From an uncultured bacterium (GTDB lineage Bacteria > Eisenbacteria > RBG-16-71-46): a DNA stretch of 64,000 nt. Shown here piece by piece: positions 17,201-64,000 of this stretch. The stretch spans positions 13,016 to 77,015 of the forward strand of contig CAZSQX010000006.1 in the NCBI GenBank assembly GCA_964609125.1, written 5' to 3'. Position 1 is the first letter of the stretch, and each line of letters begins with the position of its first letter. Made by a program: the position numbers and the translations under genes. The notes under the pieces were generated by a model, which did no database searches, was not told the origin of the DNA, and saw nothing but the letters and a program-made list of their open reading frames with translations.

Positions 17201-17233
17201 CAGAACCTCCCTGTCTCCGATCCCTCGGAGCGG

Positions 17234-19014: not shown

Positions 19015-19030
19015 AGTTCCACGTGGAACA
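19015..19030. promoter_or_regulatory. parS site upstream of parA
   Basis: AGTTCCACGTGGAACA, one mismatch to the palindrome TGTTCCACGTGGAACA. Confidence 0.88.
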
Positions 19031-19041
19031 AGCGCCATCGA

Positions 19042-19071
19042 AATAAGGCAAATTGCTCACTTCTTTGTCAA
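19042..19071 (-). promoter_or_regulatory. Probable parAB promoter overlapping the rsmG 3' end
   Basis: Minus strand TTGACA (19071-19066), 18-nt spacer ending TGC, CTTATT (19047-19042); locally AT-rich; predicted start about 5 nt before parS. Confidence 0.6.
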
Positions 19072-19698: not shown

Positions 19699-19998
19699 CC
19701 GGTCGAGGAGCCTGACCGGGTCGGGGCGCGGCCTGGTGCGCCGATCGACCGGAGCCCCAGGTGGAAGGCCCTGGCGGCCTCCACCGCGACCGGTGCGAGC
19801 CCGGCCCCGGTCCGGACGCTCGCCACCGGCAGTGGTGGCTCTCGGGGGGCGCGAGCGACGCGGAGGGGCCATGGCCCCGCACACTACCGGAGAGCGCGCC
19901 CGCCTGCCGCCCGTCCGACTCCCGTCGCGCCCGCAGGAGTCGCGTGGGCGCCCCGGTCCGGTCGGGCACGCGCCCATGGGCCGGCCCGCGGCGGCGGA

Positions 19999-23417: not shown

Positions 23418-23502
23418 GCATCCCCCGTCGGAGAAGGGATCGGCGCCCGGCTCGACCGAGCCGGGCGCCGTGGTTCGAAGGGTGCCTCGCTCGACCGCCG
23501 CG

Positions 23503-24957: not shown

Positions 24958-25343
24958 CGGAATGCTTCCTGCCGGACGCGCACCTGTCGCACGGGGCCGC
25001 TCCCTCGGGGAGCCGGGCCGCGCGCCGGGGCGCTGTCCCGGTGCGGGTGGATGTGATGCTCCGCGGTGCGTCGTCGCGCGCGGCGCGCCGCCTCCTCGAT
25101 ACGCGAGGGACGTCGCCGCCGGCGCGTGGGTCGCGCCCGTCGGCCGGCGCGTCGGGGCGCGCCAGGCCGGGGCCGCGGGGCCCGCGGAGCGTTGTCGAAA
25201 CGACGGGAGACTCTACTTCGCCGCGGCTCCCGTCCGCCACGGCGATTCTCGTGCTCCCCGGTCGCGTGGGGTGCGGCCGGCGCTGCCCGTGCGCCGCGCG
25301 GATCGGCCCGCGCGGCCCCCGTGGAGCCTGGATCGCGGTCCGC

Positions 25344-27191: not shown

Positions 27192-27193
27192 GG

Positions 27194-27403
27194 TCAGGGC
27201 ACCGGGTCCACACCCGCGGTCCCCAGCGGGTGGCAGCGTCCGAGGCGGCGGAGCGCGAGCCACGCGCCGCGCGCCGCGCCGTGGCGGGCGATCGCCTCGC
27301 GCGCGTACTCGGAACAGGAGGGATGGTGGCGACAGGCGCCGCGCACGGCCGGAGGCGCGAGGTGCTGGTAGGCGCGGATGGCGATCAGCAGGAGTCGGCG
27401 CAT
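27194..27403 (-). CDS. yidD: Membrane protein insertion efficiency factor YidD
   Basis: IRAYQ, CRHHPSCSEYA, RCHPLG..GVDPVP. Confidence 0.95.
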   Translation of the reverse strand: MRRLLLIAIRAYQHLAPPAVRGACRHHPSCSEYAREAIARHGAARGAWLALRRLGRCHPLGTAGVDPVP

Positions 27404-27404
27404 G

Positions 27405-32951: not shown

Positions 32952-34547
32952 TCAGGCGGCGGAGAGGTTCTCCTCGGGGGCACCGCTCGTGGCCGCCGGA
33001 CCGGCCGCCAGGGGCAGCCGGATCCAGAACGTCGAGCCCGCGCCGGGGCGGCTGTTCACGCCCACGTGTCCACCGTGCAGCTCCGTGATGCGCTTGACGA
33101 GGTGGAGCCCGATGCCGAGCCCGCCCCGCGATTCCGCGTCCTCGGGGACGTTCTGGCCGAACAGCTCGAAGATGTGCGTGGCGGTGTCGGGCGCGATCCC
33201 CGGACCGTGGTCCACCACCTCGATGCGGACGAACGTCTCGTCGAGGCGGGCGCGGAGCAGCACCGGCACGTCGCGCGGGCTGAACTTGATCGCGTTCACG
33301 ACCAGGTTCACGAGCACCTGGCGGATCTTCACCTCGTCCAGCGCCAGCATCGGCAGGCCGTCGGCCACCTCGCCCTGCACGGACACGCCGAACTTCTGCG
33401 CCATGCCGCGCGTGGTGTCGATCGCGCCACGGACCAGCTCGGCCAGCTCGATCGGGCGGGGCTTGAGCGCCAGTTTCCCGCTCTCGAGCCGGGACAGGTC
33501 GAGGATGTCCTCGATCAGGCTCAGCAGCCGCTGCGCCTCGGCGCGGAGCCGGCCCACGAACTCCCGGCCCTGCTCCCGCGACAGCCGTCCCTCGTGGTCG
33601 TCGAGCAGCTCGGCGTAGGCGATGACGCTGGTGAGCGGGGTCTTCAGCTCGTGGCTCGCGGTGCCCAGGAAGACGTCCTTGAGCCGGTTCAGGTCGGACA
33701 GCTTCTCGTTGTCGGCCTCGAGCTCGCGCGTGCGGCGGCCCATCCGCTCCAGCACCTCCGCGCGGTCGATGACGGCGGCGATGTGCTCCGCGAACACCCG
33801 CAGCACGTCGAGGTGGTGCTGGCCGAAGGGCTCGGTGTGGTTGATGCGGTTCACGTTCAGCACGCCGACCACGCGCTCTCCGATCGCGAGCGGCAGCGAC
33901 AGCGCCGAGGTGATGCGCCGGTTCTCCTTGTAGTGGCGGCCCAGCTCGGCCGAGGGCGCGCGCTCGCCGAGCGACACCGCCTCGCGCCGGAGCGCCACCC
34001 AGCCCGCGATGCCCTCGCCGATCCGCTTGCGAGCGCCGCGCGAGAACTCGGCCTCGAGGCCGTACGAGGCGCGGGTCACGAGCTCGCCGTTCTCGGGCTC
34101 GAGAATCATGATGCTGGCCTGCTGCGCCTTGAGCGTGCTGACCACGCGCCGCACGATGATCTCGAGGATGACGTCGCTCCGAAGCTGGAGCTGGAGCGTC
34201 GTGCTCACCTGGAACAGAGCGGTCAGCTCGGAGAGCCGGACGCTGGCCGTGGCGCGCTCGCTCTCCTCGCGCGACAGCGCCAGCACCGCGCGGTGCAGCT
34301 CGCGCTGCTGGAGCACCGTGTAGAGACAGAACAGGATGACGAGCCCCGCGAGCGCGACGGTGACGACGTACGGGTTGTCCACGCCGGCCAGCAAGTCCTG
34401 CGGCCCCGCGAACCCGAGCACGCGCGCATAGAGCGCCGGCACGACCGTGGTGAGGGCGAGAAGCAGCGCGAACGCCGCCACCCACAGCATCCAGCCGGCG
34501 CGCTGGAGCTGCTTCCACCGGATCTCGGTCGTGGACGGCGTGCCCAT
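32952..34547 (-). CDS. Membrane GAF-domain sensor histidine kinase
   Basis: Two TM helices, GAF (GEGIAGWVA, GVLNVNR), H-box ASHELKTPL, N-box NLVVNAIKF, G-boxes DHGPGI and GLGIGL. Confidence 0.95.
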   Translation of the reverse strand: MGTPSTTEIRWKQLQRAGWMLWVAAFALLLALTTVVPALYARVLGFAGPQDLLAGVDNPYVVTVALAGLVILFCLYTVLQQRELHRAVLALSREESERATASVRLSELTALFQVSTTLQLQLRSDVILEIIVRRVVSTLKAQQASIMILEPENGELVTRASYGLEAEFSRGARKRIGEGIAGWVALRREAVSLGERAPSAELGRHYKENRRITSALSLPLAIGERVVGVLNVNRINHTEPFGQHHLDVLRVFAEHIAAVIDRAEVLERMGRRTRELEADNEKLSDLNRLKDVFLGTASHELKTPLTSVIAYAELLDDHEGRLSREQGREFVGRLRAEAQRLLSLIEDILDLSRLESGKLALKPRPIELAELVRGAIDTTRGMAQKFGVSVQGEVADGLPMLALDEVKIRQVLVNLVVNAIKFSPRDVPVLLRARLDETFVRIEVVDHGPGIAPDTATHIFELFGQNVPEDAESRGGLGIGLHLVKRITELHGGHVGVNSRPGAGSTFWIRLPLAAGPAATSGAPEENLSAA

Positions 34548-34733
34548 CCCTGGTCCTCGGAGGTTTCCGGCGGCGGGGGTCTTCACCCCGGGGTCATCGG
34601 CAGGCCGGGGTCCGCGATTGAGCGCTTTCCCCGGGCCCGGCGCCCGGCCAGGGCCGGGCCCGCCCCCCGCCGCCGCCACGGTTCCGACGCCTCCGGCTCA
34701 CGGTCCACGGAGGGTCCGGGCTAGATTGGACGG

Positions 34734-51500: not shown

Positions 51501-51761
51501 CGCCTGTTCGACGAGCTCCGGTTGCGCGAGCCCCTCGCGAGCGCCGTCCGCGCCCACCACGCCGAGGCCGGGGAGGCCTGGCGCCTCGCCGCCCGCGTGC
51601 GCGCGCTGCTCGCCCACCCGGACGCACCCGCCGACTGGCCCGCCTTTCTCGCCGACGAGGACGCCCGCTTCGCCGCCGGCCTCGAAGCCGGCGCGTCCCG
51701 CGAGGAGGCACCCGGCTGGGTCGAGCTGCCGGCCGCGATCGAGCCGCGCGCCGGACGATAG
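48573..51761 (+). CDS. Large GH13 alpha-amylase-family protein, 1062 aa
   Basis: LWLIGVWERS, ASDMVPNH, WNDTAQLDYL, IRFDAAM (nucleophile), LLAEAFW (acid/base), NNPDE; GAGGAG SD, TACACT at 48537-48542. Confidence 0.9.
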   Translation: MPRWPYEFHVAREVRERCRFDEALFASSGHAVLARPEAAQRFAAALRASGPAYATASAADLFALGLLDEAAHLVIAGWRREREPHALADALEALERRLGRAATHALLAAFVSRFPPESVRRGALDPDAWLAGSSAGRPHPEVAIEELLLLSLEDTNPAASAYHELFDAAPLAGAAPYAAALAELERFLAARATVGASGLTLLEFLRAPVRAAPRALTGQLEYVRRHWGPWIGDLLERMQLAFDLRREEERWWAARAARPWAGDAEPPDYAGLEAEHERFSADAEWMPRAVMIAKSTLVWLDQLARRHGREIRRLDQVPDEELERLAAFGINTLWLIGVWERSPASRRIKQLAGNPDAAASAYAVYDYVVAGELGGEEAWARLRGRAAERGIRLASDMVPNHMGLDSRWLVEHPEWFLSRPDSPYPAYRFEGPELSDDPRVSVRIEDHYWDRSDAAVVFRRADRASGETRYVYHGNDGTGFPWNDTAQLDYLNPAAREAVIQAILGVARRSPVIRFDAAMTLAKRHIQRLWFPEPGGEGIPSRAGHGMSRAGFERAMPHEFWREVVDRVAAEAPGTLLLAEAFWLMEGYFVRTLGMHRVYNSAFMVMLRDERNADFRRVLRDTLAFDPRILQRWVNYLNNPDERTAVDQFGRGEKYFGVCTLMATLPGLPMFGHGQIEGFEERYGMEFRRAQRDESVDEGLEREHWRRIVPLLRRRALFAGAAEFLLYDCRDHSGHVNEDVVAYSNRDASGAALVLYHNRHAEARGRIRVSAAYAEVRGDGTRAQRQRALLDGLGLAHLPDDALVRCRDAVRGHEHLLRAGELREHGLQVELGAFGSRVLLDWREAARDGRPWDELARTMPADGLPDLERSLWELAVRPAQARFGAAVAAYADHTPAARATLLDALEPLALEAAARLTWPAPDSGRARRRLAGRLGTWAALRAETGPAERAAHAAWLLLEACGGAFDSEPAAAGRALRLFDELRLREPLASAVRAHHAEAGEAWRLAARVRALLAHPDAPADWPAFLADEDARFAAGLEAGASREEAPGWVELPAAIEPRAGR

Positions 51762-51986
51762 CGCGTCCGCCCGTCGGGCGCGGGCCGGCGGCAGGAGGCG
51801 CGGGGTCTTCCCGCCCAGCGTGGCAGTTCGCACTCGGTGGAATCCCCCAGCGTCGCCCGCGGACGTCGCGGGCACGCCGCACGCCGCGCCGTGCACGCCG
51901 CATCGCGCCTCCGCAACGCGTTCGTGTCGCGGGTCCGGCCGGGGACGATCTCCGTGCGTCATGCGCGCCACGCGCGCCGGCACGTC

Positions 51987-52001
51987 CGGCATCCGGCTTG
52001 C
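51987..52001 (+). promoter_or_regulatory. Putative sigma-54 (-24/-12) promoter of the lipoprotein gene
   Basis: CGGCATC-CGGC-TTGC versus consensus TGGCACG-N4-TTGC; 77 nt before ATG 52079. Confidence 0.55.
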
Positions 52002-52078
52002 GGTGACAGGTCACCGACAGGCGCGCCCCACGGTCACTCCGACCCGCGCCGCTCGACCCCGAAGCGACGAGGCCCACG

Positions 52079-52645
52079 ATGTCACGCACCACGGTCCGCT
52101 CCGCCATCCTGCTCGGCACGCTGTCCATGCTCCTCACCGGCTGCGGCCGCGATCCCGTCTCGCCCCAGCTGACGCTGCCGGGGCAGCCCGGCGCCGGCGG
52201 CTACGGCGGCACGCAGACCGAGGATCCGCCCGCGCCCGTCGAGCCCCAGGCCGGCGCCGGCGCCGAGCTGCTCGTCGCGGCGAACGGCGAGGGATCCGTC
52301 CGCGTCGGCCGGTTCTCGCTCAAGGTGCACAAGAACTCGCTGCGGCACGCGGCCACCATCACGCTCACCGTCTCCGATCCCGCCTCGATGCAGGTGGCCA
52401 TCCAGGTCACCCCCGCGGAGGCGAACGACTTCCAGGTCCCGCTCGAGCTGGTCGCCGACCTGTCGGATCGCCCCGACCTGAACCTCGACAACCAGACCAT
52501 CTACTGGTGGGACGGGGACTGGCAGGCCGCGAATGACGTGACCGTGCAGCGGGGCTCGAAGTCCCTGAAGGCGCGGACCCAGACACTCATGAGCGCGAAG
52601 GTGGACCTGCTCGCGCCGGCTCAGAAGGAAACGGAGAGGGAGTAG
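52079..52645 (+). CDS. Hypothetical lipoprotein
   Basis: Lipobox LLTGC, Pro/Gly linker, beta-rich C-terminal domain. Confidence 0.75.
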   Translation: MSRTTVRSAILLGTLSMLLTGCGRDPVSPQLTLPGQPGAGGYGGTQTEDPPAPVEPQAGAGAELLVAANGEGSVRVGRFSLKVHKNSLRHAATITLTVSDPASMQVAIQVTPAEANDFQVPLELVADLSDRPDLNLDNQTIYWWDGDWQAANDVTVQRGSKSLKARTQTLMSAKVDLLAPAQKETERE

Positions 52646-52684
52646 CAGGGGTTCGGCAGGACGCCGAGAGGGGGGTGAACGAAC

Positions 52685-52710
52685 GGCGCCGGTCCTCGGG
52701 GACCGGCGCC
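52685..52710. terminator. Hairpin between convergent lipoprotein and fhs genes
   Basis: 11-bp stem GGCGCCGGTCC/GGACCGGCGCC with TCGG loop, then TTCCATTC. Confidence 0.7.
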
Positions 52711-52762
52711 TTCCATTCACAGGTCCGCGCCGCCCCGCGGCGCGGCGCACCGCGGGCGCGCT

Positions 52763-54388
52763 TCACCGGTGCACGATCTCGCCCACGTCCGTCAGGTCGA
52801 AGCGCCACGCCAGCGGCTCCCGCGGCAGGCCCGGCATGCGCATGATCTCGCCCGTGATCGGGATCACGAAGCCCGCGCCGGCGGCGAGCTGGATCTCGCG
52901 CACCGTCACCAGGAAGTCCTTCGGCCGTCCGAGCAGCGCCGGGTTGTCCGACAGAGACTGCTGCGTCTTCGCGATGCACACCGGGAGCTTGCCGAAGCCC
53001 GACTTCTCGAGCTGGTCGCGGTCGCGCTTCGCCCTCGCCGTGTAGTCCACGGCCTGCGCCCCGTACATCTCGTGCGCGACGACGCGGATCTTCTCCTCGA
53101 TGGACGAGTTCCAGTCGTAGAGCGGCCGGAAGTGCGGCTCGTGCGCCGCCACCTTCTCGCGCACGACCTCGGCCAGCGCCGTGCAGCCCCTGCCGCCGTC
53201 GGCGAAGCCGCGGTGCTCCACCGCGGGCAGCCCCATCGCCTCGCAGTGCCTCCTGAGCGTCTCCACCTCCTCCGCCGTGTCGGAGGGGAAGTGGTTGATC
53301 GCCACCACGCACGGCTGCTCGAACTTCGCGATGTTCTCCAGGTGCTTCTCCATGTTCGAGAACCCGCGCAGCATCGCGCGCACGTCCGGCTGGTTCACGT
53401 CCGCCACCCGCACGCCGCCGTGCATCTTGAGCGCGCGGATCGTGGCCACCAGCACCGTGCACACCGGCGCGAAGCCGCCGTAGCGGCAGTTGATGTCGAA
53501 GAACTTCTCCGCCCCCAGCTCGAACGCGAAGCCGGCCTCGGTCACCACGACGTCGGCGTGGGCGAGCGCCGCGCGCGTGGCCACGATGCTGTTCGTGCCG
53601 TGCGCGATGTTCGCGAACGGCCCGCCGTGCACGAACGCCGGAACGCCCTCCGTGGTCTGGACGAGGTTCGGCTTCACGGCGTCCCGGAGCAGCGCCGCCA
53701 TGGCGCCCACCGCCTGGAGGTCCGCCGCGGTCACCGGCGTGCCGTCCGAGCGGTAGCCCACCACGATCCGCCCGAGCCGGGCCTTCAGGTCCGGGATCCC
53801 GGTGGCGAGGCAGAGCACCGCCATCACCTCGCTGGCCGCGGTGATGTCGAAGCCCGTCTCGCGCGGGATGCCCTCGGTGCGCCCGCCGAGGCCGATGAGG
53901 ATGTCGCGCAGCGCACGGTCGTTCATGTCCACGACGCGCTTCCAGGTGACGCGGCGCGGGTCGAGCCCGGCGGCGTTGTCGAAGTGGAGCGCGTTGTCCA
54001 CGAGCGCCGCCAGCAGGTTGTGCGCGCTCGAGACGGCGTGGAAGTCGCCGTTGAAGTGCATGTTGACGTCGTCCACCGGCAGGACCTCGCACGCCCCGCC
54101 GCCCGCGCCGCCGCCCTTCATCCCGAACGTGGGCCCCAGGCTCGGCTCGCGCAGCGCCACGGCGCTCCTCACGCCGATCCTGGACAGCCCCTGCGCGAGG
54201 CCGATGCTGGTGGTGGTCTTCCCCTCGCCCGCGGGCGTGGGGGTGATGGCGGAGACCAGCACCAGCTTGCCCCTGCGCGGGCGGTCCCGGAACGCCTCCA
54301 GCGCCACCTTCGCCTTCCACCGCCCGTACGGCTCGACGTGCTCCGGCGCGATGCCGAGCGCGCCCGCGACCTCGAGGATGGGTCTCAT
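52763..54388 (-). CDS. fhs: Formate--tetrahydrofolate ligase
   Basis: ITPTPAGEGKTTT, LREPSLGPTFG, MHFNGDFHAV, ETGFDITAASEVMA, HGGPFANIAHG, TEAGF, GEIMRMPGL. Confidence 0.97.
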   Translation of the reverse strand: MRPILEVAGALGIAPEHVEPYGRWKAKVALEAFRDRPRRGKLVLVSAITPTPAGEGKTTTSIGLAQGLSRIGVRSAVALREPSLGPTFGMKGGGAGGGACEVLPVDDVNMHFNGDFHAVSSAHNLLAALVDNALHFDNAAGLDPRRVTWKRVVDMNDRALRDILIGLGGRTEGIPRETGFDITAASEVMAVLCLATGIPDLKARLGRIVVGYRSDGTPVTAADLQAVGAMAALLRDAVKPNLVQTTEGVPAFVHGGPFANIAHGTNSIVATRAALAHADVVVTEAGFAFELGAEKFFDINCRYGGFAPVCTVLVATIRALKMHGGVRVADVNQPDVRAMLRGFSNMEKHLENIAKFEQPCVVAINHFPSDTAEEVETLRRHCEAMGLPAVEHRGFADGGRGCTALAEVVREKVAAHEPHFRPLYDWNSSIEEKIRVVAHEMYGAQAVDYTARAKRDRDQLEKSGFGKLPVCIAKTQQSLSDNPALLGRPKDFLVTVREIQLAAGAGFVIPITGEIMRMPGLPREPLAWRFDLTDVGEIVHR

Positions 54389-54443
54389 GGTGCCGCACTA
54401 TAGGGCGCGCGAATCCATCGCGCGAGCCCGACGCCCGGCGGCT

Positions 54444-55697
54444 TCAGGCGCGTCGCGTGTGGCGCAGCGCCAGCGCGAGCAGGTCGTCGGCGGGCACCGC
54501 ATGCCCGCTCCGTTCCAGCGCGACCGACGTGGCGCGCCGGACCTGTTCCTCGACGGGTTCGCGCCGGTGCTGGAGCAGCTCCTCGGCGACCAACTCTTCC
54601 GTCCAGACGTGGTGGCCCGAAGCCGCCGCCAGCACCGCGTCACTCAGGACCACACACAGGTCTCCCGGCATCATCCGCAGGGAGGTCTCGGCGTACTCGC
54701 CGGAGTAGCGGGCCGTACCGAGCGGCGGCCCACCCTCCGGCCAGCGCTGCCAACGGTGTCCTTCGAACGGGAGCCAGAAGGGCGGCGGGTAGCCCGCGGC
54801 GCACGAGCGTATCTCCCCGCGAGGGGTGAGCCTGCCCAGCCAGGCGCGACTGGCCCTGCCCGGAGAATGCTCGCGCACGACGGCGTTCAGGCCCTCGGCG
54901 AGCGCGCTCATGCTGGCGCCGTCCGGGGCGAGCGCGAGAAACGCTCCGCACAGCCGATCGGCGAGCGGGATCGCGATCGCGGCGGGTCCGAACGGCTCCG
55001 CGAGCAGGATCGTGATGGAGCCGTCGCCGTGCGCGACGTGCTCGCACCGGTCCGGTGCGTCGGAGGTCCCCTCGACCAGCGAGAGCGCGACGTCCCCCGA
55101 CACCGCCCGCGGCCAGTCGGCGACCGGGGGGCGCGCCGTCAACCTCCTCCACCCGGCCCGTGCCGCGGCCAGGTCCAGCATCCGTTCGAGGATCGCACCC
55201 ATGGCCGCGCCGGTCAGCTCGACGGAAGCCATCTCCTCGGGCGTGAAGCGGGGAGCGGGCTCGATGCGCGACAGGCTGAGGACGCCCATCGGGCCTCGGC
55301 GGCCGAGGATCGGCACGCACATGGCGCTTGAGAGGTGATCCGCGGCGGCGCTCGCCTGGAAGCGCGCGTCGCGGACCTCGCCGTGGATGAGGATGGCTTT
55401 GCACTCCCGCATGACGTGATCGGAGATCTGCCGGCGCCCTGGCAGGGGCGCTCCGGCCGGCAGTGGGGGGAGCCCCATCCCGGCCAGCAGGCGCAGCGCG
55501 CCACTCTCCGCGTCGCGCACCAGGATCGAGCCGCGCGTGGCGCCCACCGAACCCGCAAGCAGAGCCAGCAGGCCCCGTGCGGCGCGGCCCGCATCGGACG
55601 CGAGTTCGATGCGCCGGGCCCAGTCGGCGATCCCGGCCACGACCGCGGCCGGCGCGAGCGTGGGCGTCGGGCCGTCGCCGGGCCCCGGCAGGTTCAC
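54444..55697 (-). CDS. GAF + SpoIIE/PP2C-like protein with degenerate metal site
   Basis: GAF (SAMCVPI..GVLSLSR); SpoIIE-like CAAGYPPPF, GGPPLG, MMPGD..VVLSDA, DDLLAL; DVSGHG motif replaced by EPFGPA; GTGA overlap with FlaF-like gene. Confidence 0.78.
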   Translation of the reverse strand: MNLPGPGDGPTPTLAPAAVVAGIADWARRIELASDAGRAARGLLALLAGSVGATRGSILVRDAESGALRLLAGMGLPPLPAGAPLPGRRQISDHVMRECKAILIHGEVRDARFQASAAADHLSSAMCVPILGRRGPMGVLSLSRIEPAPRFTPEEMASVELTGAAMGAILERMLDLAAARAGWRRLTARPPVADWPRAVSGDVALSLVEGTSDAPDRCEHVAHGDGSITILLAEPFGPAAIAIPLADRLCGAFLALAPDGASMSALAEGLNAVVREHSPGRASRAWLGRLTPRGEIRSCAAGYPPPFWLPFEGHRWQRWPEGGPPLGTARYSGEYAETSLRMMPGDLCVVLSDAVLAAASGHHVWTEELVAEELLQHRREPVEEQVRRATSVALERSGHAVPADDLLALALRHTRRA

Positions 55698-56137
55698 GCG
55701 ACGTCCTTCCGATCCGAGCGTCGGCCTCGGGACTCGTTCTGCGGCGTCGCGAGCAACACCGCGATGCCCCGGTCGATCTCGATCATGGCGCGCAGACGCG
55801 AGGGCTCGGGACGCTCGAGCACCTCGGCGGTCCACAGGTCGATGAACCGGGCCAGGCGAAGCAGGTCCTCGGCGAGCCCGGGTGGAAGCGCGGAGAGCGA
55901 TTCCTCGAAATCGACCTCGAGCGATGCCCAGAGCGCGACGTGCCGGTGCAGGGCTCGCGCGAGGCGCGCGGAGTGTCCAGCCCGATCCCAACCCGCGACG
56001 CAGGCCTCGAGACCTCGAACGGCGGTGCGGAAGCGTGCGCTGGCGGAAGGCGCTCCGGATGCCGCATCCGGGACGGCCGATCCTGGTGGGACACCCGCGG
56101 GTACCGGATTCGGATCCGCACGACGGACGCTGCACAT
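55694..56137 (-). CDS. FlaF-like protein
   Basis: ALHRHVALW, LP..LAEDLLRLARFI, LRAMIEIDRGIA..L match the FlaF pattern (AL..N..LW, LP..LR..L..L..F, LI.IN..IA.GL); start uncertain. Confidence 0.7.
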   Translation of the reverse strand: MCSVRRADPNPVPAGVPPGSAVPDAASGAPSASARFRTAVRGLEACVAGWDRAGHSARLARALHRHVALWASLEVDFEESLSALPPGLAEDLLRLARFIDLWTAEVLERPEPSRLRAMIEIDRGIAVLLATPQNESRGRRSDRKDVA

Positions 56138-56208
56138 GGTGTGAGTGGCCCCGGCCGGCGAAAGGGTCGCGATGGGTGAGGCGTGGCGCCGGGCCGAGGG
56201 GAGCCCGC

Positions 56209-56273
56209 CGAGAGGTCCTCCCGGGAGGACCTCTCGTGGCGTGGAACGACCTCGGCCCGATGGCCGAGGTCGT
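56209..56273. repeat. Two adjacent inverted repeats in the FlaF-like leader
   Basis: Perfect 28-bp palindrome CGAGAGGTCCTCCCGGGAGGACCTCTCG (56209-56236) and 12-bp stem ACGACCTCGGCC/GGCCGAGGTCGT with 4-nt loop (56246-56273). Confidence 0.9.
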
Positions 56274-56362
56274 GCACGAGCCGCGGCGCGGGACTCCGGG
56301 CCATCCTCCCGGCGCCCCTCGCGGCCGCTCGCCCTCGACTTCCGACGTCCGCGACCGCTCAC

Positions 56363-56377
56363 GCAAGCCCAATGCCA
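56363..56377 (-). promoter_or_regulatory. Sigma-54 promoter of the FlaF-like/PP2C-like operon
   Basis: Minus strand TGGCATT-GGGC-TTGC. Confidence 0.75.
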
Positions 56378-56484
56378 TCGAACCAGGGCCCGGGCTCGCG
56401 CCCGTTCGTCCCCGGCTGGCGCGGGCCGACGCGCGTGTCGTCGCCGCGCAGGCGGGTCGGTCGTGCGGCGGCCGGAAGGAACGA

Positions 56485-56522
56485 CCGGAAATCTCTTCCG
56501 GCGGACCGGCAGGATGTTCCGG
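56485..56522. promoter_or_regulatory. Tandem candidate upstream activator sequences
   Basis: CCGGAA-N5-TTCCGG (56485-56501) and CCGGCA-N5-TTCCGG (56506-56522), 21 bp apart, about 110-145 bp upstream of the sigma-54 promoter. Confidence 0.6.
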
Positions 56523-56523
56523 T

Positions 56524-57897
56524 TCACCCTGCGCGCAGCTTGTTCCGCAACGTTCGGTCGCTGATACCGAGAAGCTGCGCGGCTCGCAACCTGTGGCCTC
56601 CGGTCTGCTTCAGCGCACGCCAGATCGCCATGCGCTCGAGGTGCTGGAGGTTGAGTGACTCGGTCTCGGGTTCCCCACCCGGATCCGGCGCGGACGGCCC
56701 GACCGCCCGGGACTTCTCCCCTGCCGCTTCGGGCGCGCCCCGCACGGCGAGCAACTCGGGCCCGATCCGCCCGCCCCGGCACAGGATCAGGGCGCGCTCG
56801 ATCGCATTCCGGAGCTCCCGGACGTTGCCCGGCCAGTGCTGCGCCTGGAGCCAGGCGAGCGACTCCGACGGGAGCACCGGGGGCCGGATGCCGAGCTGCC
56901 CGGACAGCGACCGGACGAAGTGCTCGGCCAGCTCCGGGATGTCCTCGGCGCGTTCTCGAAGCGCGGGGGTGCGGATCGGGACCACGTGCAGGCGATGGTA
57001 GAGGTCGCGACGGAAGCGCCCACCCTCCACGTCCCCGCGCAGGTCCCGGTTCGTGGTGGCGATCAGTCGTACGTCCACGTGAATCGGCTGGTGGCCGCCG
57101 ACGCGCTCGAACTCCTGTTCCTGGAGCACGCGAAGCAACTTTCCCTGAAGGTCCAGTCGCATCTCGGAGATCTCGTCCAGGAGCAGCGTTCCACGATGCG
57201 CCCGCTCGAACGCGCCGGCCGCACGCGAGGTCGCGCCCGTGAACGCGCCGCGCTCATGGCCGAACATCGTGCTCTCCACCAGCCCTTCGGGGAGGGCGGC
57301 GCAGTTCACGGAGACGAATGGCTGCCCGGCGCGCGGCGAAAGGTCATGAATCGCGCGCGCGACGAGTTCCTTCCCGGTGCCGGATTCACCCTGGAGCAGC
57401 ACCGTGGACCGCGTCGGCGCCACGCTCCGGACCACCTCCATGACCGCGTGGAGCGCCGCGCTCCGGCCCACGAGCATGCGCGAATCGCCGAGGCTCCGGA
57501 GTTCGCGCTGGCAGCCCTCGTTCAGTCGGCGCATGCGGTCGAGCTCGATCGCCTTCGTGACCGCGAGCCGCACGGCCTCCGCGCGGAGCGGCTTGGTGAG
57601 GTAGTCGGCCGCGCCGTGGCGAAGGCTGGAGACGGCCTGCTCCTCGTCGGGATAGGCCGAGATCACGATGACGGGCACATCCAGGCCGTCGCGGCGCAGC
57701 GCGCCGAGCAGGTCGAGGCCCGTGCCGTCGGGCAGCTGCTGCGCCGAGATGACCAGATCGACCGGATCGCGCGCGACCGTCGCGAGGGCGGACTCGACGC
57801 TGGCCGCGAACATGGGGTGATGACCCATCCCCCGCAGCGCCTGGTCGAGCCGCCCGGTGACCGAGACCTCGTCGTCGACGCAGAGGATCGTGGACAT
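56524..57897 (-). CDS. NtrC-type sigma-54 enhancer-binding protein with Asp-less receiver
   Basis: ILCVDDE receiver with DLVISA (Ala at phosphoacceptor site); [40 protein letters not shown], Fis HTH. Confidence 0.95.
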   Translation of the reverse strand: MSTILCVDDEVSVTGRLDQALRGMGHHPMFAASVESALATVARDPVDLVISAQQLPDGTGLDLLGALRRDGLDVPVIVISAYPDEEQAVSSLRHGAADYLTKPLRAEAVRLAVTKAIELDRMRRLNEGCQRELRSLGDSRMLVGRSAALHAVMEVVRSVAPTRSTVLLQGESGTGKELVARAIHDLSPRAGQPFVSVNCAALPEGLVESTMFGHERGAFTGATSRAAGAFERAHRGTLLLDEISEMRLDLQGKLLRVLQEQEFERVGGHQPIHVDVRLIATTNRDLRGDVEGGRFRRDLYHRLHVVPIRTPALRERAEDIPELAEHFVRSLSGQLGIRPPVLPSESLAWLQAQHWPGNVRELRNAIERALILCRGGRIGPELLAVRGAPEAAGEKSRAVGPSAPDPGGEPETESLNLQHLERMAIWRALKQTGGHRLRAAQLLGISDRTLRNKLRAG

Positions 57898-57992
57898 GGG
57901 CCATCCGTGGCGTGGGGCACCCGACTCTCCGGTCGGTCGTGGCGCTTCCGCAGCGGCCGTGTCGACGTGGCCGATGCGCGACGGCATCCACC

Positions 57993-58007
57993 GCAACGGC
58001 CGTGCCA
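57993..58007 (-). promoter_or_regulatory. Sigma-54 promoter of the NtrC-type bEBP gene
   Basis: Minus strand TGGCACG-GCCG-TTGC, exact consensus; 95 nt before ATG 57897. Confidence 0.85.
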
Positions 58008-58156
58008 GCCATCGATGAAGTCGGTTTCCCGGTACCAGGATGGGCGACAAGCCTGTCAACCCGAACGACTGCAACATGCCCGGGGCCTGGCTCCGATCCG
58101 CAGACCGCCTGGAGGGAGAGCTCCGTCCGCGACCGCGAGCGACGACCGCACGGACT

Positions 58157-58172
58157 CGGAATCCGGATTCCG
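58157..58172. promoter_or_regulatory. 16-bp perfect palindrome, candidate enhancer
   Basis: CGGAATCCGGATTCCG about 150 bp upstream of the 57993-58007 promoter. Confidence 0.45.
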
Positions 58173-58194
58173 GAATCGGGCCGACTCGCGGTCG

Positions 58195-59514
58195 TCACGC
58201 GTCGGGCCCGCGCCGCGCTTGTGTCGCCGCGCGGGGCGACGCGAGGCCGAGTGCCCGAAGCTTCTGGTAGAGCGTGCTGCGCGGGACGCCGAGCCGCCGC
58301 GAGGCGCGACCGACGTGGCCGAGTTCCTGCTCGAGAACGGACTCGATGTAGGCGCGCTCCACCTCCTCCAGCGTGCCGCCATGGACAGGACGCGGGGGCG
58401 GCTGCGGCCCTGCGAACGACAAATGCCGGAGCTCGATCGGCCCGACTCCCGCCGAGAGCAGCGCACGCTCCAGCTCGTTCCGCAGTTCACGCAGGTTGCC
58501 GGGCCAGGGGTGGCGGAGCAGTGCCCGCTCGGCCTCCGCCGTGAGCGTGGTCTCCGGCCGATCGAGGTCCTCGCACAACGTGGCGAGGATCTGGCGCGCG
58601 AGCAGCGGGATGTCCGGGCGGCGCGCCTGAAGCGCCGGCATGCGAAGGGGGAGGACCCCGACGCGATAGTAGAGGTCCTCCCGGAATCGTCCCTCGCGCA
58701 CCGCCCGCGCCAGGTCCTGGCGCGTGGCCGCGATGATGCGCACGTCCACTCGAAGTTCGCGGGTGTCGCCGATCCGCCGGAAGCGCTGTTCCTCGATCAC
58801 CTTGAGGAGCTTGGCCTGGACCGCAGGCTCCATGTCGCCGATCTCGTCGAGGAACAGCGTTCCGCCATCGGCCACCTCGAGCAGGCCGCGTTTGGAGCTG
58901 GTGGCGCCGGTGAAGGCCCCCCGCTCGTGACCGAAGAGCTCCGATTCGAGCAGCTCGCGCGAGAGGCCGGCGCAGTTGAGGTCGAGGAACGGCGAATCGC
59001 AGCGCGGCCCATGTCGGTGGAGCCACGCCGCGAGCACGCTCTTTCCGGTGCCGGTCTCGCCCTCGATGAGCACGGGGCTTGCCGAGACCAGCGCCTTGAG
59101 CGCGTCGCGCGACGCCCGCTGGATCGCGGGGCTCTCGCCGAGGAACGGATAGGGAGGCGTTCGCTGCCGCGGCCCCGCCGGCGTGCGCGGAGCATCGGCG
59201 GCCGATGCGCCGTTCGCGCGCGCAGGGAGCATGTGGACGGCGGGGAGGGCCGCCAGGAGACCCGTATCCGGGTCATCGCCGTCCGTCGCGGCGACCGGAA
59301 GCAGGAGGATGGGGATCTCCCTCGCTCCGGCTTGCGCCCACGCGGCGCGGAACTCGGGCGTATCCTCGACCAGCGAGCGCGAGAGCACGACGAGCCGGGG
59401 CCGGATGCCACCCAGTTCCCGCAAGGCGTCGTTCGCCACCTCGGCGAACACCAGCTCGTAGCCGAGCGAGCTCAGCATCGTCGCCAGCTGATCGCGATAT
59501 TCGGACCTTGGCAT
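58195..59514 (-). CDS. Sigma-54 enhancer-binding protein with degenerate receiver-like N-domain
   Basis: [56 protein letters not shown]; N-domain has VVLSRS and no phosphoacceptor Asp. Confidence 0.93.
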
Positions 59515-59671
59515 GGCGAGCAGCGCGCGCGTGGGCTTCAGGGCGGACCCTCCACGACGCGCGCCACCCGGGTCGCCGCCGCGTACCCACGGCGGACAGG
59601 TCGGGGCGGGGAAACGAAGTCACTCCCCCGGATGAGCTCCGCTCCCGCCCCGTGGCGGTTCATGCGACGGG

Positions 59672-59950
59672 CTACCGGATGAAGCGGATCAGGATCCGGT
59701 AGTCGGCGAGAGCGAAGCGGAGTCGCGCCGGAGCCTGCGTCCGCGTGCCGAGCGACGGCAGGCGGCGGTCGGTGACGCGTTCGCCGCGCTGGAATCGGGT
59801 CACGCGGGTCGGGGTGGGGGCGCTCTCCCCAACCGGGGCCAGCGCGTTGCCGCCCGACATGCCGGGCGAGACCTGCGCGTGCGACGGCATCGCGATCGTG
59901 ACGATGAAGGCCAGGGCGAAGAACGGGGCGAGAAGAATCGTGCGGCGCAT
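59672..59950 (-). CDS. Small exported protein, 92 aa
   Basis: GGAGG SD, signal peptide MRRTILLAPFFALAFIVTIAMPSHA|Q, basic amphipathic C-terminus. Confidence 0.7.
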   Translation of the reverse strand: MRRTILLAPFFALAFIVTIAMPSHAQVSPGMSGGNALAPVGESAPTPTRVTRFQRGERVTDRRLPSLGTRTQAPARLRFALADYRILIRFIR

Positions 59951-60005
59951 GTTTGCCTCCCTTCTGAAACCGGTTGGTCGGCGGATACCGACCCACCCGG
60001 ACATC

Positions 60006-60020
60006 GCGAGAGGCGTGCCC
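60006..60020 (-). promoter_or_regulatory. Putative sigma-54 promoter of the small exported protein
   Basis: Minus strand GGGCACG-CCTC-TCGC, GG and GC correctly spaced; 55 nt before ATG 59950. Confidence 0.55.
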
Positions 60021-60198
60021 GCGTCGAGCCTGAGGGGGGCATGCTCGCAGTGTGCTGCGCCGCATGGGGTTGGGTGGGCGCACGGGCGCCGGGTCCGCCC
60101 GCAGGGCCAGACGTTCGACTCGTCGATTATGGCGAGCCGTGAGGCGGGGAGGCTTCAGAGTCGCAAGGCGCCCAACGGATTAGCGCCAGCAGGCTGGT

Positions 60199-63100
60199 TC
60201 AGCGAGTTCGCCGGAATTGGCGAACGCGGATCAAGCCGTACTTGCGAAGTCGGTATCGGAAGGCCTGCTCCGTGATCCCCAGGAAGCGGGCCGCGCTCGA
60301 CTGGTTCCCCCCGCTCCGATCAAGGGCCTCGAGGAGCCTCCGCTTCTCGAGCTCGGCCACGTGCTCGCGCAGTGGCCGCGCCCGGGCGGCCGCGGCGGCC
60401 CGGCGCGCCGGGCCGCGCGGGCCCGGTTCGTCGGGAGGAGGCTCGGGCCTGAGCACCGACTCGGATGACAGCGCCATCAGGCGCTCGATGTAGTTCTGCA
60501 ACTCGCGGACATTCCCCGGCCAGTCGTGCTGCATGAGAACGGCGAGCAGCCGGGGCGAGAGCACGGGCACGTCGCGACCCTGCTGCGAGGCGACCATCGC
60601 CGCGAACTGGCGCGCCAGCTCCGGGATGTCCGCCTTGCGTTCGCGCAGCGGCGGCAAGGCGATGGGCACGACGTTGAGCCGGTAGAACAGGTCCCTCCGG
60701 AACGACCCTTCGGCCACCAGCTTCGCAAGGTCCTGGTTCGTGGCCGCGATCACGCGAACGTCCACGTCCACCGGCCGCCCGCCACCCACGGGTGTCACCT
60801 TGCGATTCGAGAGAACGCCGAGCAACGCCACCTGCTGAGCGGGGGGCATCTCGCCGATCTCATCCAGGAACAGAGTGCCGCCGTTCGCCTCGACGAATCG
60901 GCCGGGCCGGGCGCGCACGCCGGTGGCCACGTTGTCGAGGATCCCGAACAGCTCGCTCTCGAGGAGGGTGGCGGGGATCGAGCCGCAGTTCACCATCACG
61001 AAGGGATTCATCGAGCGCGCGCCCGAGAAGTGGATCATGCGCGCGACCAGCTCCTTTCCGGTGCCGTTCTCGCCCGTCAGCAGCACCGTGCTGGAGATGC
61101 CGGACGCGCGCTCCACCACCGCCAGGACCTGGCGCATGGCGAGGCTGCGTCCCATGAAGTAAGGCAGCCGGAGCCGGGAGCTCACCTCGCGCCGGAGCGA
61201 GAGATTCTCGCCCACGAGCAGCTCGTTGGCGCGGCGGACCTGCTCGTGCCCCCGGCTGTTCTCGATGGCCACGGCGAGCAGGTGGGCGAAGCCTTCGAGC
61301 AGCCCGCGCTCGGCCACCCCGAACGCGTCCGCACGGCGGGAGTCGTCGAGGTAGACGGCGCCCACCACCTTGCCCGACACGAACATCGGCACGCAGAGGA
61401 TGCTGCGGAGTCCGAGCTCCACCATGCTGTTCGAGAGCTTCTCGAGGTCCGTGCTCGCATCGCCCAGGAGCAGGCTGCCGCCACTCCGAGCCACCCGCTG
61501 CACGACCTCGCGGCTGTAGCTCAGGGCCTGGTCACGGGTCGCGGCATCGATCGCGCCGTATTCCACGACCGGCTCCAGGTCGCCCTTGCCGGCGCCCGCC
61601 AGAACCAGGACACCGCGTTCGGCGTCGAGCTGGTCCACCGCCAGCCGCATGGCCCGCCGGCATAGCTCGTCCAGGTCGGGCTGGGAGTCGAGGAGCCGCG
61701 TGACGGACTCGAGCAGGTCCCGATCGCGGGTGACGACGCCGCCTCGCCCGCCGTGCCGGCGGTACCAGTCCACGGCCTGCGCCAGGGCGATTTCGCGCTG
61801 CGGATGGTCGCCGAGCCGTCCGAAGCCCGCCGCGGCGTCGCGGAGCCAGTCCGGCACCGGCGTGCGCGCCGCGAGCCCCGCCCGCGTCGCCACGCGGGCG
61901 AACTCGAGTGCTGCGGAGGCGGCCTCGTGCGGCGCGGGCAGCGCCGCGAATGCGGCCAGCGCCGCGGCGGCCGCGCGACTGCCTTCCACTGCCTGCCCCC
62001 GTGCGAGCGCCCACTCGGCGCGCAGCTGTCGGACGCACGCCTCGGCGTAGGGAGCGCTTCGTCCCTCGAACCAGCGCTCGGCTTCGGCGAGCCGCGCCTC
62101 GGCCTCGTCCAGCGCCTCGGCCCTCAGGGCGGCCCGGCCGCGCAACGCCGCCAGGATCGGCGTCGTGGTCTGAGCGGGGTCCGCCTCGGCGGAGCCGCAC
62201 TCCCAGACGCGCGCCGCCTCCGACCAGCGGCCGAGCCGCTTGCACGCGAGGCCGAACTCGATCCTGCACCAGGCCAGCTCGCCGGGCTGGGCCGCACGCT
62301 CCGCGGTGTCGAGCGCACGCTTCGAGGCGCGCAGGCTCGCTCCGGTGCGCCCGGTGACGCGCAGCGCCGTGGCCAGCGTGCGCCAGGCATAGGCTTCCCG
62401 CCCCCGCTCGTGTCGCCGCGTGGCGCGCAGCGCCGTGCGCGCGCGCTCCACCGCACGCGACGTACGTCCCGTGAGCGCATCGAGGAGCGTGAGGTGGACG
62501 AGCCCGAACGCGACCGCGCGAGGCCAGCCCTCCTCCAGCGCGACCCCAAGCGCCTGCGCCATGACCTCGCGCGCATCCGACCAGCGACCGCGCTCGACCA
62601 GCACCCAGGCCAGGTTGGTCGCCAGCTCGTTCTGAGGCAGGCGCGCTCCCTGGGAACGTGCCTCCTGGAGCGACTCGCGGTAGAGCCGCTCCGCGGTCTC
62701 GAAATCGCGCCGCATCCCCGCCACGAACGCACTCAGCCCCGTGCCGCGGATGCGCCCGAGCGTGTAGCCCGCCCGCGCGCCAGCCTCCACCGCCGATGCG
62801 GCCAGGGACCCGGCCTCGTCCACGCGGCCCTGGAACACGCAGAGGTTCCCCAGCGTGAACGCCGCCAGCGACAACGCCTCCCCGTCCCCCGAACTCTCGG
62901 CCAGTGACAGCGCCTCGCGCGCGGCCGCCTCGGCGGCAGGCGCATCGCCGGACGCCGAAAGTCGCATGGCCTCGTTCGTCAGGAGCAGCGCGCGTTCGCG
63001 AGCGTCGAGCGGCTCGGCGAGCGCCCGCTCGTGGAGCACGGACAGCTCCGCCAGCGAACCCGTGCGAAGGTATGCCCCGGACAGCGCGTGCCAGCGCGCG

Positions 63101-64000
63101 CCGCGCGACGGATCGTGGGGAGCCCGCGCGAGGGAGCGCTCGAGGTGCGGGATCGCCTCACGGTAGCGGCCTCGCTCGAGCAGCATGCGGCCGGCGCGAT
63201 CCTCCCAGCGCGCGGCCACCTCGGAGGGTCCGCCAGCCGCCACCCGGGCCGCCTCCAGCGCGAGCTCGACACCCGCGCCGTCGGCGAGTGCCCGCTCGGC
63301 TTCGGCGAGCGCCGCGGTCCCCTCGCCTGCTCCCGCCAGATGCATGAAGCGCCGCGCCGCCGAGTGGCCCGTCAGCCCCAGGGCCGCCCGGTGGAGCGCC
63401 CGGCGCGCCGATCCCTCGAGCTTGCCGCGCAGCGTGCGCGCGAAGCCCGGCGGCGAAAGCGAGCAGCGCCCTGTCTCGTCGCGCGAGATCAGTCCGGCGC
63501 CGGCGAGCGCCGCAAGCGCGCTCGAGTCCGCGCGTGGCTCGATCGCCAGCAGTTCCGCGGGCGCGAGGCCCGCCTCGTCCACCGCCAGTGCCGCCGCGGC
63601 GGCCCACGCCGGCTCTCCGAGGGAGCGCAGTCGAGCGAGGCGCTGCTCCTCGAGCCCCGCCGGGAGCGGCAGCGCCGCGAGCCGCTCTCGGTCAAGCGTG
63701 ATCCCCGAGTCTTCGTCGGCGATCGCCCCCGCCGCGGCGGCGGCCAGCAGCGCCTCGACCGCGAGACCGGGCTGTCCCCCCGAGCGCTCCCAGATCGCCC
63801 CGACGAGCGCGTCCGGCGGCGGATGCCGGAGTCGCGCCGCGATCAGATCCTGAAGCGCCGGTCGGTCGAGTGGGCCCAGCAGGAGCCGCTCGGCCCGACC
63901 CGCAGCCTGCCAGAGCCGCGCCGTGTCGGGGTCGCGGTCCTCGGAACCGGTCAGGCACCAGACCCAGCGCAGCGCACCCGCCAGCGGATGGAGGGCGAGC
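60199..64000 (-). CDS. Large multidomain bEBP: STAND-like NTPase region + TPR + GAF + sigma-54 AAA + HTH; 5'-truncated by window edge
   Basis: Frame stays open to the window edge (LLLGPLD...ERSGGQPGLAVE); TPR-like helices; GAF (SILCVPM..GAVYLD); GENGTGKE, LFLDEIG, RDLFYRL, WPGNVREL; GAFTGA loop reads NVATGV. Confidence 0.9.
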   Translation of the reverse strand, partial: LALHPLAGALRWVWCLTGSEDRDPDTARLWQAAGRAERLLLGPLDRPALQDLIAARLRHPPPDALVGAIWERSGGQPGLAVEALLAAAAAGAIADEDSGITLDRERLAALPLPAGLEEQRLARLRSLGEPAWAAAAALAVDEAGLAPAELLAIEPRADSSALAALAGAGLISRDETGRCSLSPPGFARTLRGKLEGSARRALHRAALGLTGHSAARRFMHLAGAGEGTAALAEAERALADGAGVELALEAARVAAGGPSEVAARWEDRAGRMLLERGRYREAIPHLERSLARAPHDPSRGARWHALSGAYLRTGSLAELSVLHERALAEPLDARERALLLTNEAMRLSASGDAPAAEAAAREALSLAESSGDGEALSLAAFTLGNLCVFQGRVDEAGSLAASAVEAGARAGYTLGRIRGTGLSAFVAGMRRDFETAERLYRESLQEARSQGARLPQNELATNLAWVLVERGRWSDAREVMAQALGVALEEGWPRAVAFGLVHLTLLDALTGRTSRAVERARTALRATRRHERGREAYAWRTLATALRVTGRTGASLRASKRALDTAERAAQPGELAWCRIEFGLACKRLGRWSEAARVWECGSAEADPAQTTTPILAALRGRAALRAEALDEAEARLAEAERWFEGRSAPYAEACVRQLRAEWALARGQAVEGSRAAAAALAAFAALPAPHEAASAALEFARVATRAGLAARTPVPDWLRDAAAGFGRLGDHPQREIALAQAVDWYRRHGGRGGVVTRDRDLLESVTRLLDSQPDLDELCRRAMRLAVDQLDAERGVLVLAGAGKGDLEPVVEYGAIDAATRDQALSYSREVVQRVARSGGSLLLGDASTDLEKLSNSMVELGLRSILCVPMFVSGKVVGAVYLDDSRRADAFGVAERGLLEGFAHLLAVAIENSRGHEQVRRANELLVGENLSLRREVSSRLRLPYFMGRSLAMRQVLAVVERASGISSTVLLTGENGTGKELVARMIHFSGARSMNPFVMVNCGSIPATLLESELFGILDNVATGVRARPGRFVEANGGTLFLDEIGEMPPAQQVALLGVLSNRKVTPVGGGRPVDVDVRVIAATNQDLAKLVAEGSFRRDLFYRLNVVPIALPPLRERKADIPELARQFAAMVASQQGRDVPVLSPRLLAVLMQHDWPGNVRELQNYIERLMALSSESVLRPEPPPDEPGPRGPARRAAAAARARPLREHVAELEKRRLLEALDRSGGNQSSAARFLGITEQAFRYRLRKYGLIRVRQFRRTR

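Follow-up and report, generated by a model that had tools for sequence, protein, structure and literature searches.

The window analyzed here is a stretch of 64,000 nucleotides (nt), with about 74% G+C, from an uncultured bacterium of the Eisenbacteria (contig CAZSQX010000006.1), and all coordinates are window positions unless another locus is named. Between 54.4 and 64.0 kb, the window carries a cluster of regulatory genes associated with sigma-54-type promoters, for which the GC content of third codon positions supports one coding frame per gene, always on the minus strand. A Pfam scan confirmed the gene list of the original prediction, which had been drawn from the sequence alone: three genes encode Sigma54_activat/HTH_8 proteins of the kind found in bacterial enhancer-binding proteins (bEBPs), and the others encode a small exported protein, a FlaF-family protein, and a GAF-SpoIIE protein of the PP2C type. 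The gene of the first regulator, referred to here as the giant regulator, stays open to the window end (60199..>64000, minus strand; the C-terminal 1,267 codons of 1,690 amino acids [aa]). Its missing upstream flank was recovered on a 154-kb contig (L001, JGI 3300043178) that is identical to the window over 15.8 kb, and the kinase-fused protein of 1,690 aa could be read there in full (L001:4244-9316), including the kinase and the start of the STAND (signal transduction ATPase with numerous domains) domain that lie outside the window. No kinase had been seen in the visible part because the window edge cuts this gene; a Hanks-type Ser/Thr kinase in fact forms the N terminus of the regulator, just beyond that edge. 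The module is also not self-contained, as had been proposed, since its kinase domain lies outside the window and an extracytoplasmic function (ECF) sigma/anti-sigma pair travels with it. The loci compared were L001, L003/L004 (metagenome-assembled genome [MAG] GCA_974504975.1, whose PP2C is 78% identical to that of the window), L007 to L012, L015 to L017, L019 to L022, and the contigs P0004 and P0006. On an even balance of probability, the locus would represent a conserved multi-tier sigma-54 module that uses Ser/Thr phosphorylation and ligand sensing instead of a His-Asp phosphorelay.

The strongest new result concerns a putative enhancer-promoter unit 3' of the giant's gene, which is common to eight lineages (the window, L003, L020, L021, L015, L016, L017, and L022). 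In all eight, an 18-bp palindrome, TTCGCC-N6-GGCGAA, is located at -204 to -209, and a second copy is found at -115 to -118 in seven of them; the palindromes are followed by a GGCA-N8-(C/G)GC element and, 60 to 71 nt past this promoter, by the ATG start codon of a gene whose product of about 100 aa carries a signal peptide. When the eight regions are aligned, invariance is confined to the palindrome core, GGCA, GC, and the ribosome-binding site/ATG, so that nothing but GGCA and GC is invariant between the proximal palindrome and the ribosome-binding site/ATG. Palindromes with at most one mismatch are rare, with only 10 in the 277 kb compared. In the window, the distal palindrome (TTCGCCAATTCCGGCGAA, 60207..60224) lies at -204 relative to the -24 element, overlapping the giant's gene at its 3' end, and is a candidate enhancer, and the proximal, degenerate one (CTCGCCATAATCGACGAG, 60119..60136) is positioned at -116. 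The promoter itself (GGGCACGCCTCTCGC, 60020..60006, minus strand) has two mismatches, a family consensus of TGGCAC-N3-yTCTsGC, and a predicted +1 near 59994. The small-protein gene that follows (59672..59950, minus strand) encodes 92 aa with a predicted signal peptide and an AxAQ cleavage motif, and no Pfam or NCBIfam family matched this protein. In three loci of distant members of the giant's family (L016:13574-14125, L017:13661-14188, and L021:7998-8483), the gene for the small secreted protein is directly followed by one for a short degenerate Sigma54_activat-like protein of 160 to 183 aa, which is devoid of the Walker A GK, GAFTGA, and the helix-turn-helix (HTH) and has no counterpart in the window.

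The giant adjoining this unit combines, in Pfam terms and in this order, Pkinase (116 bits), AAA_16 (STAND; 51.8 bits), tetratricopeptide repeats (TPRs; TPR_12 is present), GAF, Sigma54_activat, AAA_lid_14, and HTH_8. Its kinase domain carries the sequence motifs of Hanks-type Ser/Thr kinases, retaining the catalytic lysine (K36), an HGDVKPSN loop with the asparagine, DLG, and APE; the HGD form, which is shared by 108 of 114 relatives, marks it as a non-RD kinase. All three regulators have a complete AAA+ Walker A motif (GESGTGK, GETGTGK, and GENGTGK, with PF00158 scores of 231, 219, and 193 bits), each with a later Walker B motif ending in LDEI, and the Walker A of the giant's AAA+ domain is intact in 114 of 114 relatives. 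The L1 loop of the giant, GILDNVATGV, occupies the same register as GHExGAFTGA of PspF and of the two smaller regulators, bEBP1 and bEBP2, and such a loop (xVATGV/xTATDV) is the norm in the giant family, being found in most of the 120 relatives listed and in several phyla. Since the giant lacks GAFTGA, it is filed here as bEBP-like and not as a proven sigma-54 activator; of the three bEBPs originally predicted, three Sigma54_activat proteins are thus present, one of which is not canonical, with NVATGV replacing GAFTGA. A co-variation of the variant loop with the odd -12 element (TCGC/TGGC) was considered and ruled out by L022, where the giant's loop is GSFTSA, yet the same TTCGC -12 element and the same enhancer geometry are found. 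The HTH_8 region is highly conserved among 98 relatives, in keeping with a common DNA target. The best NCBIfam match of the giant is NifA, whose cutoff of 528.85 it misses with 349 bits. Metagenomes contain many proteins of this architecture, with 738 matches at E<1e-10 that are labeled Eisenbacteria, Terriglobales/Acidoferrales, Limnocylindria, Udaeobacter, and others, and relatives that bear a name at all are called "sigma 54-interacting transcriptional regulator," "Nif-specific regulatory protein," or similar. A comparison by BLASTP detected no similarity between the GAF domains of the giant and the PP2C that would make them close paralogues for one ligand. Divergent from the giant's gene, L001:1-4006 encodes an ECF sigma factor, a 473-aa zf-HC2 anti-sigma factor, a single-domain receiver, and two T2SSE (PilB/PilT-like) ATPases; L021 likewise has an ECF sigma/anti-sigma pair, located there after bEBP2.

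Including the small-protein promoter, three -24/-12 promoters lie exactly where the original prediction had placed them, and the predicted starts (57981, 56351, and 59994), which assume the GC dinucleotide of the promoter at -13/-12, agree with the earlier ones. The bEBP1 promoter (TGGCACGGCCGTTGC, 58007..57993, minus strand; predicted +1 near 57981) is a perfect match, with 0-mismatch counterparts in L003, L010/L020, and L012, and the FlaF/PP2C promoter (TGGCATTGGGCTTGC, 56377..56363, minus strand; predicted +1 near 56351) has one mismatch. A fourth, sigma-54-like element (CGGCATCCGGCTTGC, 51987..52001, plus strand) is located 92 nt 5' of a lipoprotein gene, is conserved in three loci, and comes without either class of upstream site. 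All four elements keep their position in related loci, and the sense-strand upstream DNA (1,405 nt) contains four matches with at most two mismatches versus 0.27 expected, a count that none of 2,000 shuffles reached. Scans of 51700-60400 revealed no sigma-70 promoter or intrinsic terminator. The only other match in the window with at most one mismatch (TGGCCCGCGGCTTGC, 14248-14262, minus strand) lies inside the stop-to-stop frame holding the LexA gene, 5' of the LexA domains and on the opposite strand, and is probably a chance match.

The FlaF/PP2C promoter is preceded by three CCGG-N9-CCGG boxes (56472..56522; at -145, -124, and -111), which form a second candidate enhancer; the whole window contains 18 such sites. 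Boxes are found at -147 and -113 in L003, and a CCGGAA-N7-CCGG pair is positioned at -143 and -122 of the promoter driving bEBP1 and the PP2C gene in L020, so that the tandem boxes originally likened to upstream activating sequences (UASs) recur at similar distances in both loci and are UAS-like by sequence. A further conserved block (CCCGATTCCGGAATCCGGA, 58157..58180) is located about 150 to 170 bp 5' of the bEBP1 promoter. On this evidence, the target promoters would belong to the -24 GG/-12 GC class with upstream sites.

The two smaller regulators differ from the giant in having the canonical loop. bEBP1 (56524..57897, minus strand) consists of an NtrC-type Response_reg domain, Sigma54_activat with GAFTGA, and HTH_8, and its true start is the methionine ahead of the receiver domain, 3' of the perfect promoter; one activator gene is thus placed behind a sigma-54 promoter, as predicted, and bEBP2 is probably placed behind another. 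bEBP2 (58195..59514, minus strand) has a receiver-like N terminus, an AAA+ domain with GAFTGA, and HTH_8. No sigma-54 promoter element was found directly ahead of it, and its gene is therefore probably read from the small-protein promoter, in cotranscription with the small-protein gene. Neither protein in the window has the phospho-acceptor aspartate of NtrC-type response regulators: the position equivalent to CheY D57 is alanine in bEBP1 of the window and of L003 (aspartate in L010/L020), and the receiver-like domain of bEBP2 lacks both the acidic pocket and the phospho-aspartate. Because both small activators are without this aspartate, no canonical His-Asp input is visible in the locus, where the evident inputs would be the kinase, the STAND/TPR region, the GAF domains, and the PP2C. 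bEBP1 shows a stepwise decay among relatives, from a 160-aa receiver-HTH_8 protein without an AAA+ domain on the P0006 contig to a fragment ending in a similar HTH_8 C terminus in L007 (5285-5509) and an 18-codon remnant (MSTITCFAEG...) in L012 (L012:3785-4030); a sigma-54-type element persists ahead of the decayed region in both L012 and L007.

The FlaF/PP2C transcript would open with a structured leader of 168 nt (56185..56351, minus strand) that begins exactly at its predicted +1, as does the match of the covariance model. In an alignment of three distinct sequences, RNAalifold predicts a long closing helix around three hairpins, with 65 pairs and 95.9% of cells paired; there are 11 compensatory pairs, compared with 4.9 +/- 1.4 in shuffles and 0 to 3 in slid controls, and the single-sequence folding z-score is -4.2. 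Parts of the leader are conserved better than the FlaF coding sequence after it. Searches of Rfam 15 gave no match at gathering thresholds over the whole window or at E<=5 over 55600-60300; the latter result led us to reject the ZTP, THF, and other known riboswitches, which had been considered because a formate-tetrahydrofolate ligase gene lies downstream. A small open reading frame (ORF) starting from the ATG in GGAGGATGG was rejected as well, since a 1-nt indel between relatives breaks the frame. A metagenome scan yielded no new leader sequence, only one chance coding match and one locus with L003-like protein matches, and the covariance model found no convincing leader in distant loci, only a short hairpin; the hairpin CCGGG(A/T)GGATGGCCCGG is also present 5' of the PP2C gene in L010, L020, and L021. 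One hairpin loop, AGGAUGG, holds a GGA of the kind bound by CsrA-type proteins. We regard the leader as a good candidate for an RNA element and do not consider it proven.

The GAF-SpoIIE gene (54444..55697, minus strand; 417 aa) begins with a GTG that overlaps the stop codon of the FlaF gene (GTGA). PF07228 matches its product with 57.5 bits over profile positions 23 to 191 only; the DG and DD motifs are retained, DxxGHG is replaced by AEPFG, and of the three aligned metal-binding aspartates two are kept and the third is conservatively changed to glutamate. The earlier description of this protein as a pseudo-PP2C may be right but is thus not established. Relatives of the GAF-PP2C are few. The gene for formate-tetrahydrofolate ligase (FTHFS; 52763..54388, minus strand) starts 55 nt past the PP2C stop, a spacing found in all four loci of this clade, in which alone it is a neighbor; FTHFS may be cotranscribed with the sigma-54 operon, although one would not expect this of a housekeeping enzyme. 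The lipoprotein gene (52079..52645, plus strand), which converges on the FTHFS gene, encodes a predicted 188-aa protein with an LLTGC lipobox and of no known family.

The window gene order recurs in L003, without the FlaF gene and with promoter and leader kept, and in the P0004 contig, and two further contigs keep the FlaF gene. Giants encoded by MAGs of Candidatus Eisenbacteria and by related contigs share 62 to 65% identity with that of the window. A permuted order is found in L010, L020, and L021 (bEBP1, GAF-PP2C, giant, small protein, an optional 161-aa degenerate AAA+ protein, bEBP2, ECF sigma factor, and anti-sigma factor), which is a cyclic permutation of the window order, and the PP2C and giant genes are adjacent in L007 to L012 and L020 to L021. 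The survey of gene order thus revealed a content that is conserved through rearrangement, so that the ground for refutation named with the original prediction, a gene order without conservation, does not apply.

These arrangements can be accommodated in a relay, which is the best-supported reading and in which we infer the pairing of regulators with sites, the kinase substrates, the wiring, and the kinase/phosphatase feedback: (i) the cytoplasmic giant of 1,690 aa would act as master sensor, its HTH_8 binding TTCGCC-N6-GGCGAA at about -205 and -116; (ii) it would control the adjacent GGCA/GC promoter and thereby the small exported protein and, by read-through, bEBP2; (iii) bEBP2 and/or bEBP1 would fire the perfect bEBP1 promoter, providing amplification, and the FlaF/GAF-PP2C promoter via the CCGG-N9-CCGG boxes, and since both have canonical GAFTGA and receivers without the aspartate, we propose that they are controlled by abundance or Ser/Thr phosphorylation; and (iv) the GAF-PP2C would oppose the giant's kinase in a delayed negative feedback, with the structured leader adding posttranscriptional control. 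The visible end products, a small secreted protein and a lipoprotein, would be envelope proteins.

Several observations weigh against this relay. The change from aspartate to glutamate at a metal site, together with the missing GHG motif, means that the PP2C could have little or no activity; the STAND Walker A of the giant is GEPGAGRS, with arginine for lysine in this clade (across the family, 75 members have lysine and 24 have arginine); the leader alignment holds only three distinct sequences; and the wider giant family (L015 to L017 and L022) is without bEBP1 and PP2C, from which it follows that the full relay is clade specific. A further objection concerns the loop of the giant. In PspF, substitution at each GAFTGA position tested abolishes open-complex formation (PMC3467059), and by analogy the loop of the giant would be expected not to contact sigma-54. 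Some bEBP-like regulators that lack GAFTGA are reported to work with sigma-70, namely Vibrio cholerae VpsR (PMC6158489) and Caulobacter NtrC (bioRxiv 10.1101/2023.06.06.543975).

Because the loop is non-GAFTGA, the main rival reading keeps its weight, in which the giant is not a sigma-54 activator and instead serves as a transcription factor of the sigma-70 type, a repressor, an anti-activator, or a mixed-ring partner of bEBP2/bEBP1; bEBP2 or a distant bEBP would then fire the small-protein promoter, and the giant would only gate it. We regard this as a real possibility, albeit a minority one. Beyond the PspF data and the two precedents, it gains from the prevalence of xVATGV/xTATDV loops in the giant family and from the short degenerate AAA+ proteins beside the small gene in L016, L017, and L021, which hint at modulation at the level of the ring. 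On the other hand, L015, L016, L017, and L022, which have no canonical bEBP nearby, retain the small gene together with its GGCA/GC promoter and the palindromes; spacings of about 116 and 205 bp are what one usually sees for enhancers of bEBPs; and the AAA+ Walker A of the giant is intact in every one of 114 relatives.

It is unlikely that the locus holds no relay at all and that the three regulators represent parallel inputs, each dedicated to one promoter, with simple autoregulation of bEBP1 and clustering through a shared physiological function. The single sigma-54 promoter with CCGG boxes that drives bEBP1, PP2C, and possibly the giant in L010/L020 does have the look of plain positive autoregulation, and the palindromes and CCGG boxes are different classes of site. 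Yet bEBP2 has no promoter of its own and is placed after the giant-linked promoter, the small activators have neither a phospho-acceptor aspartate nor a sensor domain, leaving expression level or the local kinase as their obvious control, and all components are co-conserved through rearrangement.

A flagellar or motility regulon, with the FlaF-like protein as flagellin chaperone or translation regulator, is very improbable. The gene (55694..56137, minus strand; 147 aa) reaches 40.6 bits with Pfam PF07309, above the gathering score of 23.6, its product is 30 to 39% identical to typical FlaF proteins, the named sequence relatives being annotated FlaF, and the nearest natural folds of the predicted four-helix bundle (predicted local distance difference test score, 81) are the FliS flagellin chaperones; however, the Foldseek E-values are weak (0.07 to 0.3), and with 37.2 bits the protein falls short of the NCBIfam FlaF equivalog cutoff of 91. 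The gene calls of about 21 kb around the module and 20 further Pfam-scanned ORFs of the window include neither flbT nor flagellin nor any other flagellar gene, in line with the original statement that none was visible. Moreover, the gene is cleanly deleted (about 390 nt) in L003 (9905-10001) and L019, where promoter, leader, and PP2C are intact, and is absent from L010, L020, and L021, where the rest of the module is kept. Of the FlaF-like output originally predicted, the Pfam FlaF gene is thus present, but with its deletion in a relative of 78% identity and its absence from a distant clade, it is a dispensable add-on. FlaF of Caulobacter, which serves as a chaperone in flagellin secretion (PMC7591256), shares with the present protein its Pfam family and the helical-bundle fold predicted here, and it differs in context, which is non-flagellar here, in the NCBIfam cutoff that was missed, and in the dispensability of the gene within the clade. 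Finally, the idea that the promoter and box matches arose by chance in a 74% GC genome, in an ordinary run of regulators, can practically be dismissed: it draws on the window-wide count, in which sigma-54 matches with at most one mismatch are not enriched (3 observed versus 2.83 expected), and it is contradicted by the shuffled upstream regions and by positions that are kept in loci whose proteins are only 44 to 65% identical, across differently labeled phyla.

Outside the module, the window consists of origin-proximal housekeeping DNA, with genes for ParA/ParB, MnmE, YidC, LexA, and UbiD. The origin-proximal set of bactofilin, ParB, ParA, MnmE, and YidC at 16799-27404 places the module about 30 to 45 kb from the likely chromosomal origin region. 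A GAF-HisKA-HATPase_c histidine kinase (32952-34697, minus strand), the only one among the ORFs scanned, is encoded about 20 kb from the module. Between 34725 and 42872, three long ORFs with high third-position GC (693, 298, and 395 aa) have no Pfam match, and the AT skew of the stretch that carries them is strongly negative (-0.25 to -0.30).

As a reading that is less likely than not, we propose that proteins of about 1,700 aa with kinase, STAND, TPR, GAF, AAA+, and HTH domains could form a distinct, cross-phylum, sigma-54-linked class that has VATGV in place of GAFTGA and a dedicated promoter of fixed geometry for a small secreted protein, possibly in an autocrine or envelope loop, and that has here grown into a three-tier relay timed by kinase and phosphatase and equipped with a new RNA leader. 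Such a family bears on the GAFTGA rule, according to which sigma-54 activation depends on this loop, in that a large environmental group keeps another conserved loop beside an enhancer and -24/-12 arrangement, and it raises the question of whether sigma-54 can be activated without the phenylalanine or whether these AAA+ proteins have another role at such promoters. The fusion of Ser/Thr signaling and a STAND switch to sigma-54 transcription, with a partner PP2C, would bypass two-component systems. Experimental work could draw directly on the CCGG boxes, the conserved palindromes, and the leader of 168 nt.

bEBP cascades, kinase/PP2C pairs, and GAF-bEBPs are known kinds of system; in the searchable literature, we found no description of the kinase-bEBP fusion family, its loop, the enhancer unit, or the leader. 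Surveys of myxobacterial kinases are reported to have noted kinase-bEBP fusions. The Nla/Act/Mrp developmental cascades of Myxococcus xanthus reportedly involve several bEBPs, with bEBP genes behind sigma-54 promoters, in an organism rich in Ser/Thr kinases, and the similar placement of bEBP genes here makes a relay or feed-forward arrangement possible. Unlike in M. xanthus, the genes of all tiers are gathered in one 11-kb locus of an unrelated lineage, the top regulator carries the kinase as a fused domain, and the receivers are without the phospho-aspartate. Mycobacterium tuberculosis PknK and the STAND regulators of the MalT/AfsR type combine a kinase or STAND NTPase with TPR-like repeats and a DNA-binding output; the output of the giant differs in being an AAA+ sigma-54-type module with a Fis-type HTH, not LuxR or SARP. 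As in pairs of the PknB-PstP type, the kinase and PP2C genes are genomic partners, being adjacent in the loci named above; in contrast to these pairs and to SpoIIE/RsbU, the present PP2C has a GAF sensor and an aspartate-to-glutamate change at one metal site, and no STAS or anti-sigma-antagonist substrate is encoded nearby. The C-terminal third of the giant shares the GAF-AAA+-HTH architecture of the bEBPs of the NifA/NorR type, from which it is set apart by 1,200 additional N-terminal residues (kinase, STAND, and TPR) and by NVATGV for GAFTGA. HrpR/HrpS of Pseudomonas syringae (PMC3105312) are likewise adjacent paralogous bEBPs without a working receiver input that act on a sigma-54 promoter, at the head of a cascade to which an ECF sigma factor belongs; they differ in forming an obligate hetero-hexamer, which is not evident here, and in domain context, and a kinase/phosphatase pair is present in our locus. 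VpsR and Caulobacter NtrC resemble the giant in having an AAA+ domain of the Sigma54_activat type without the canonical contact motif. These two, however, are reported to be sigma-54 independent or to lack the loop, whereas the giant keeps a loop in the same register, with a new and conserved sequence, next to a promoter of the -24/-12 type.

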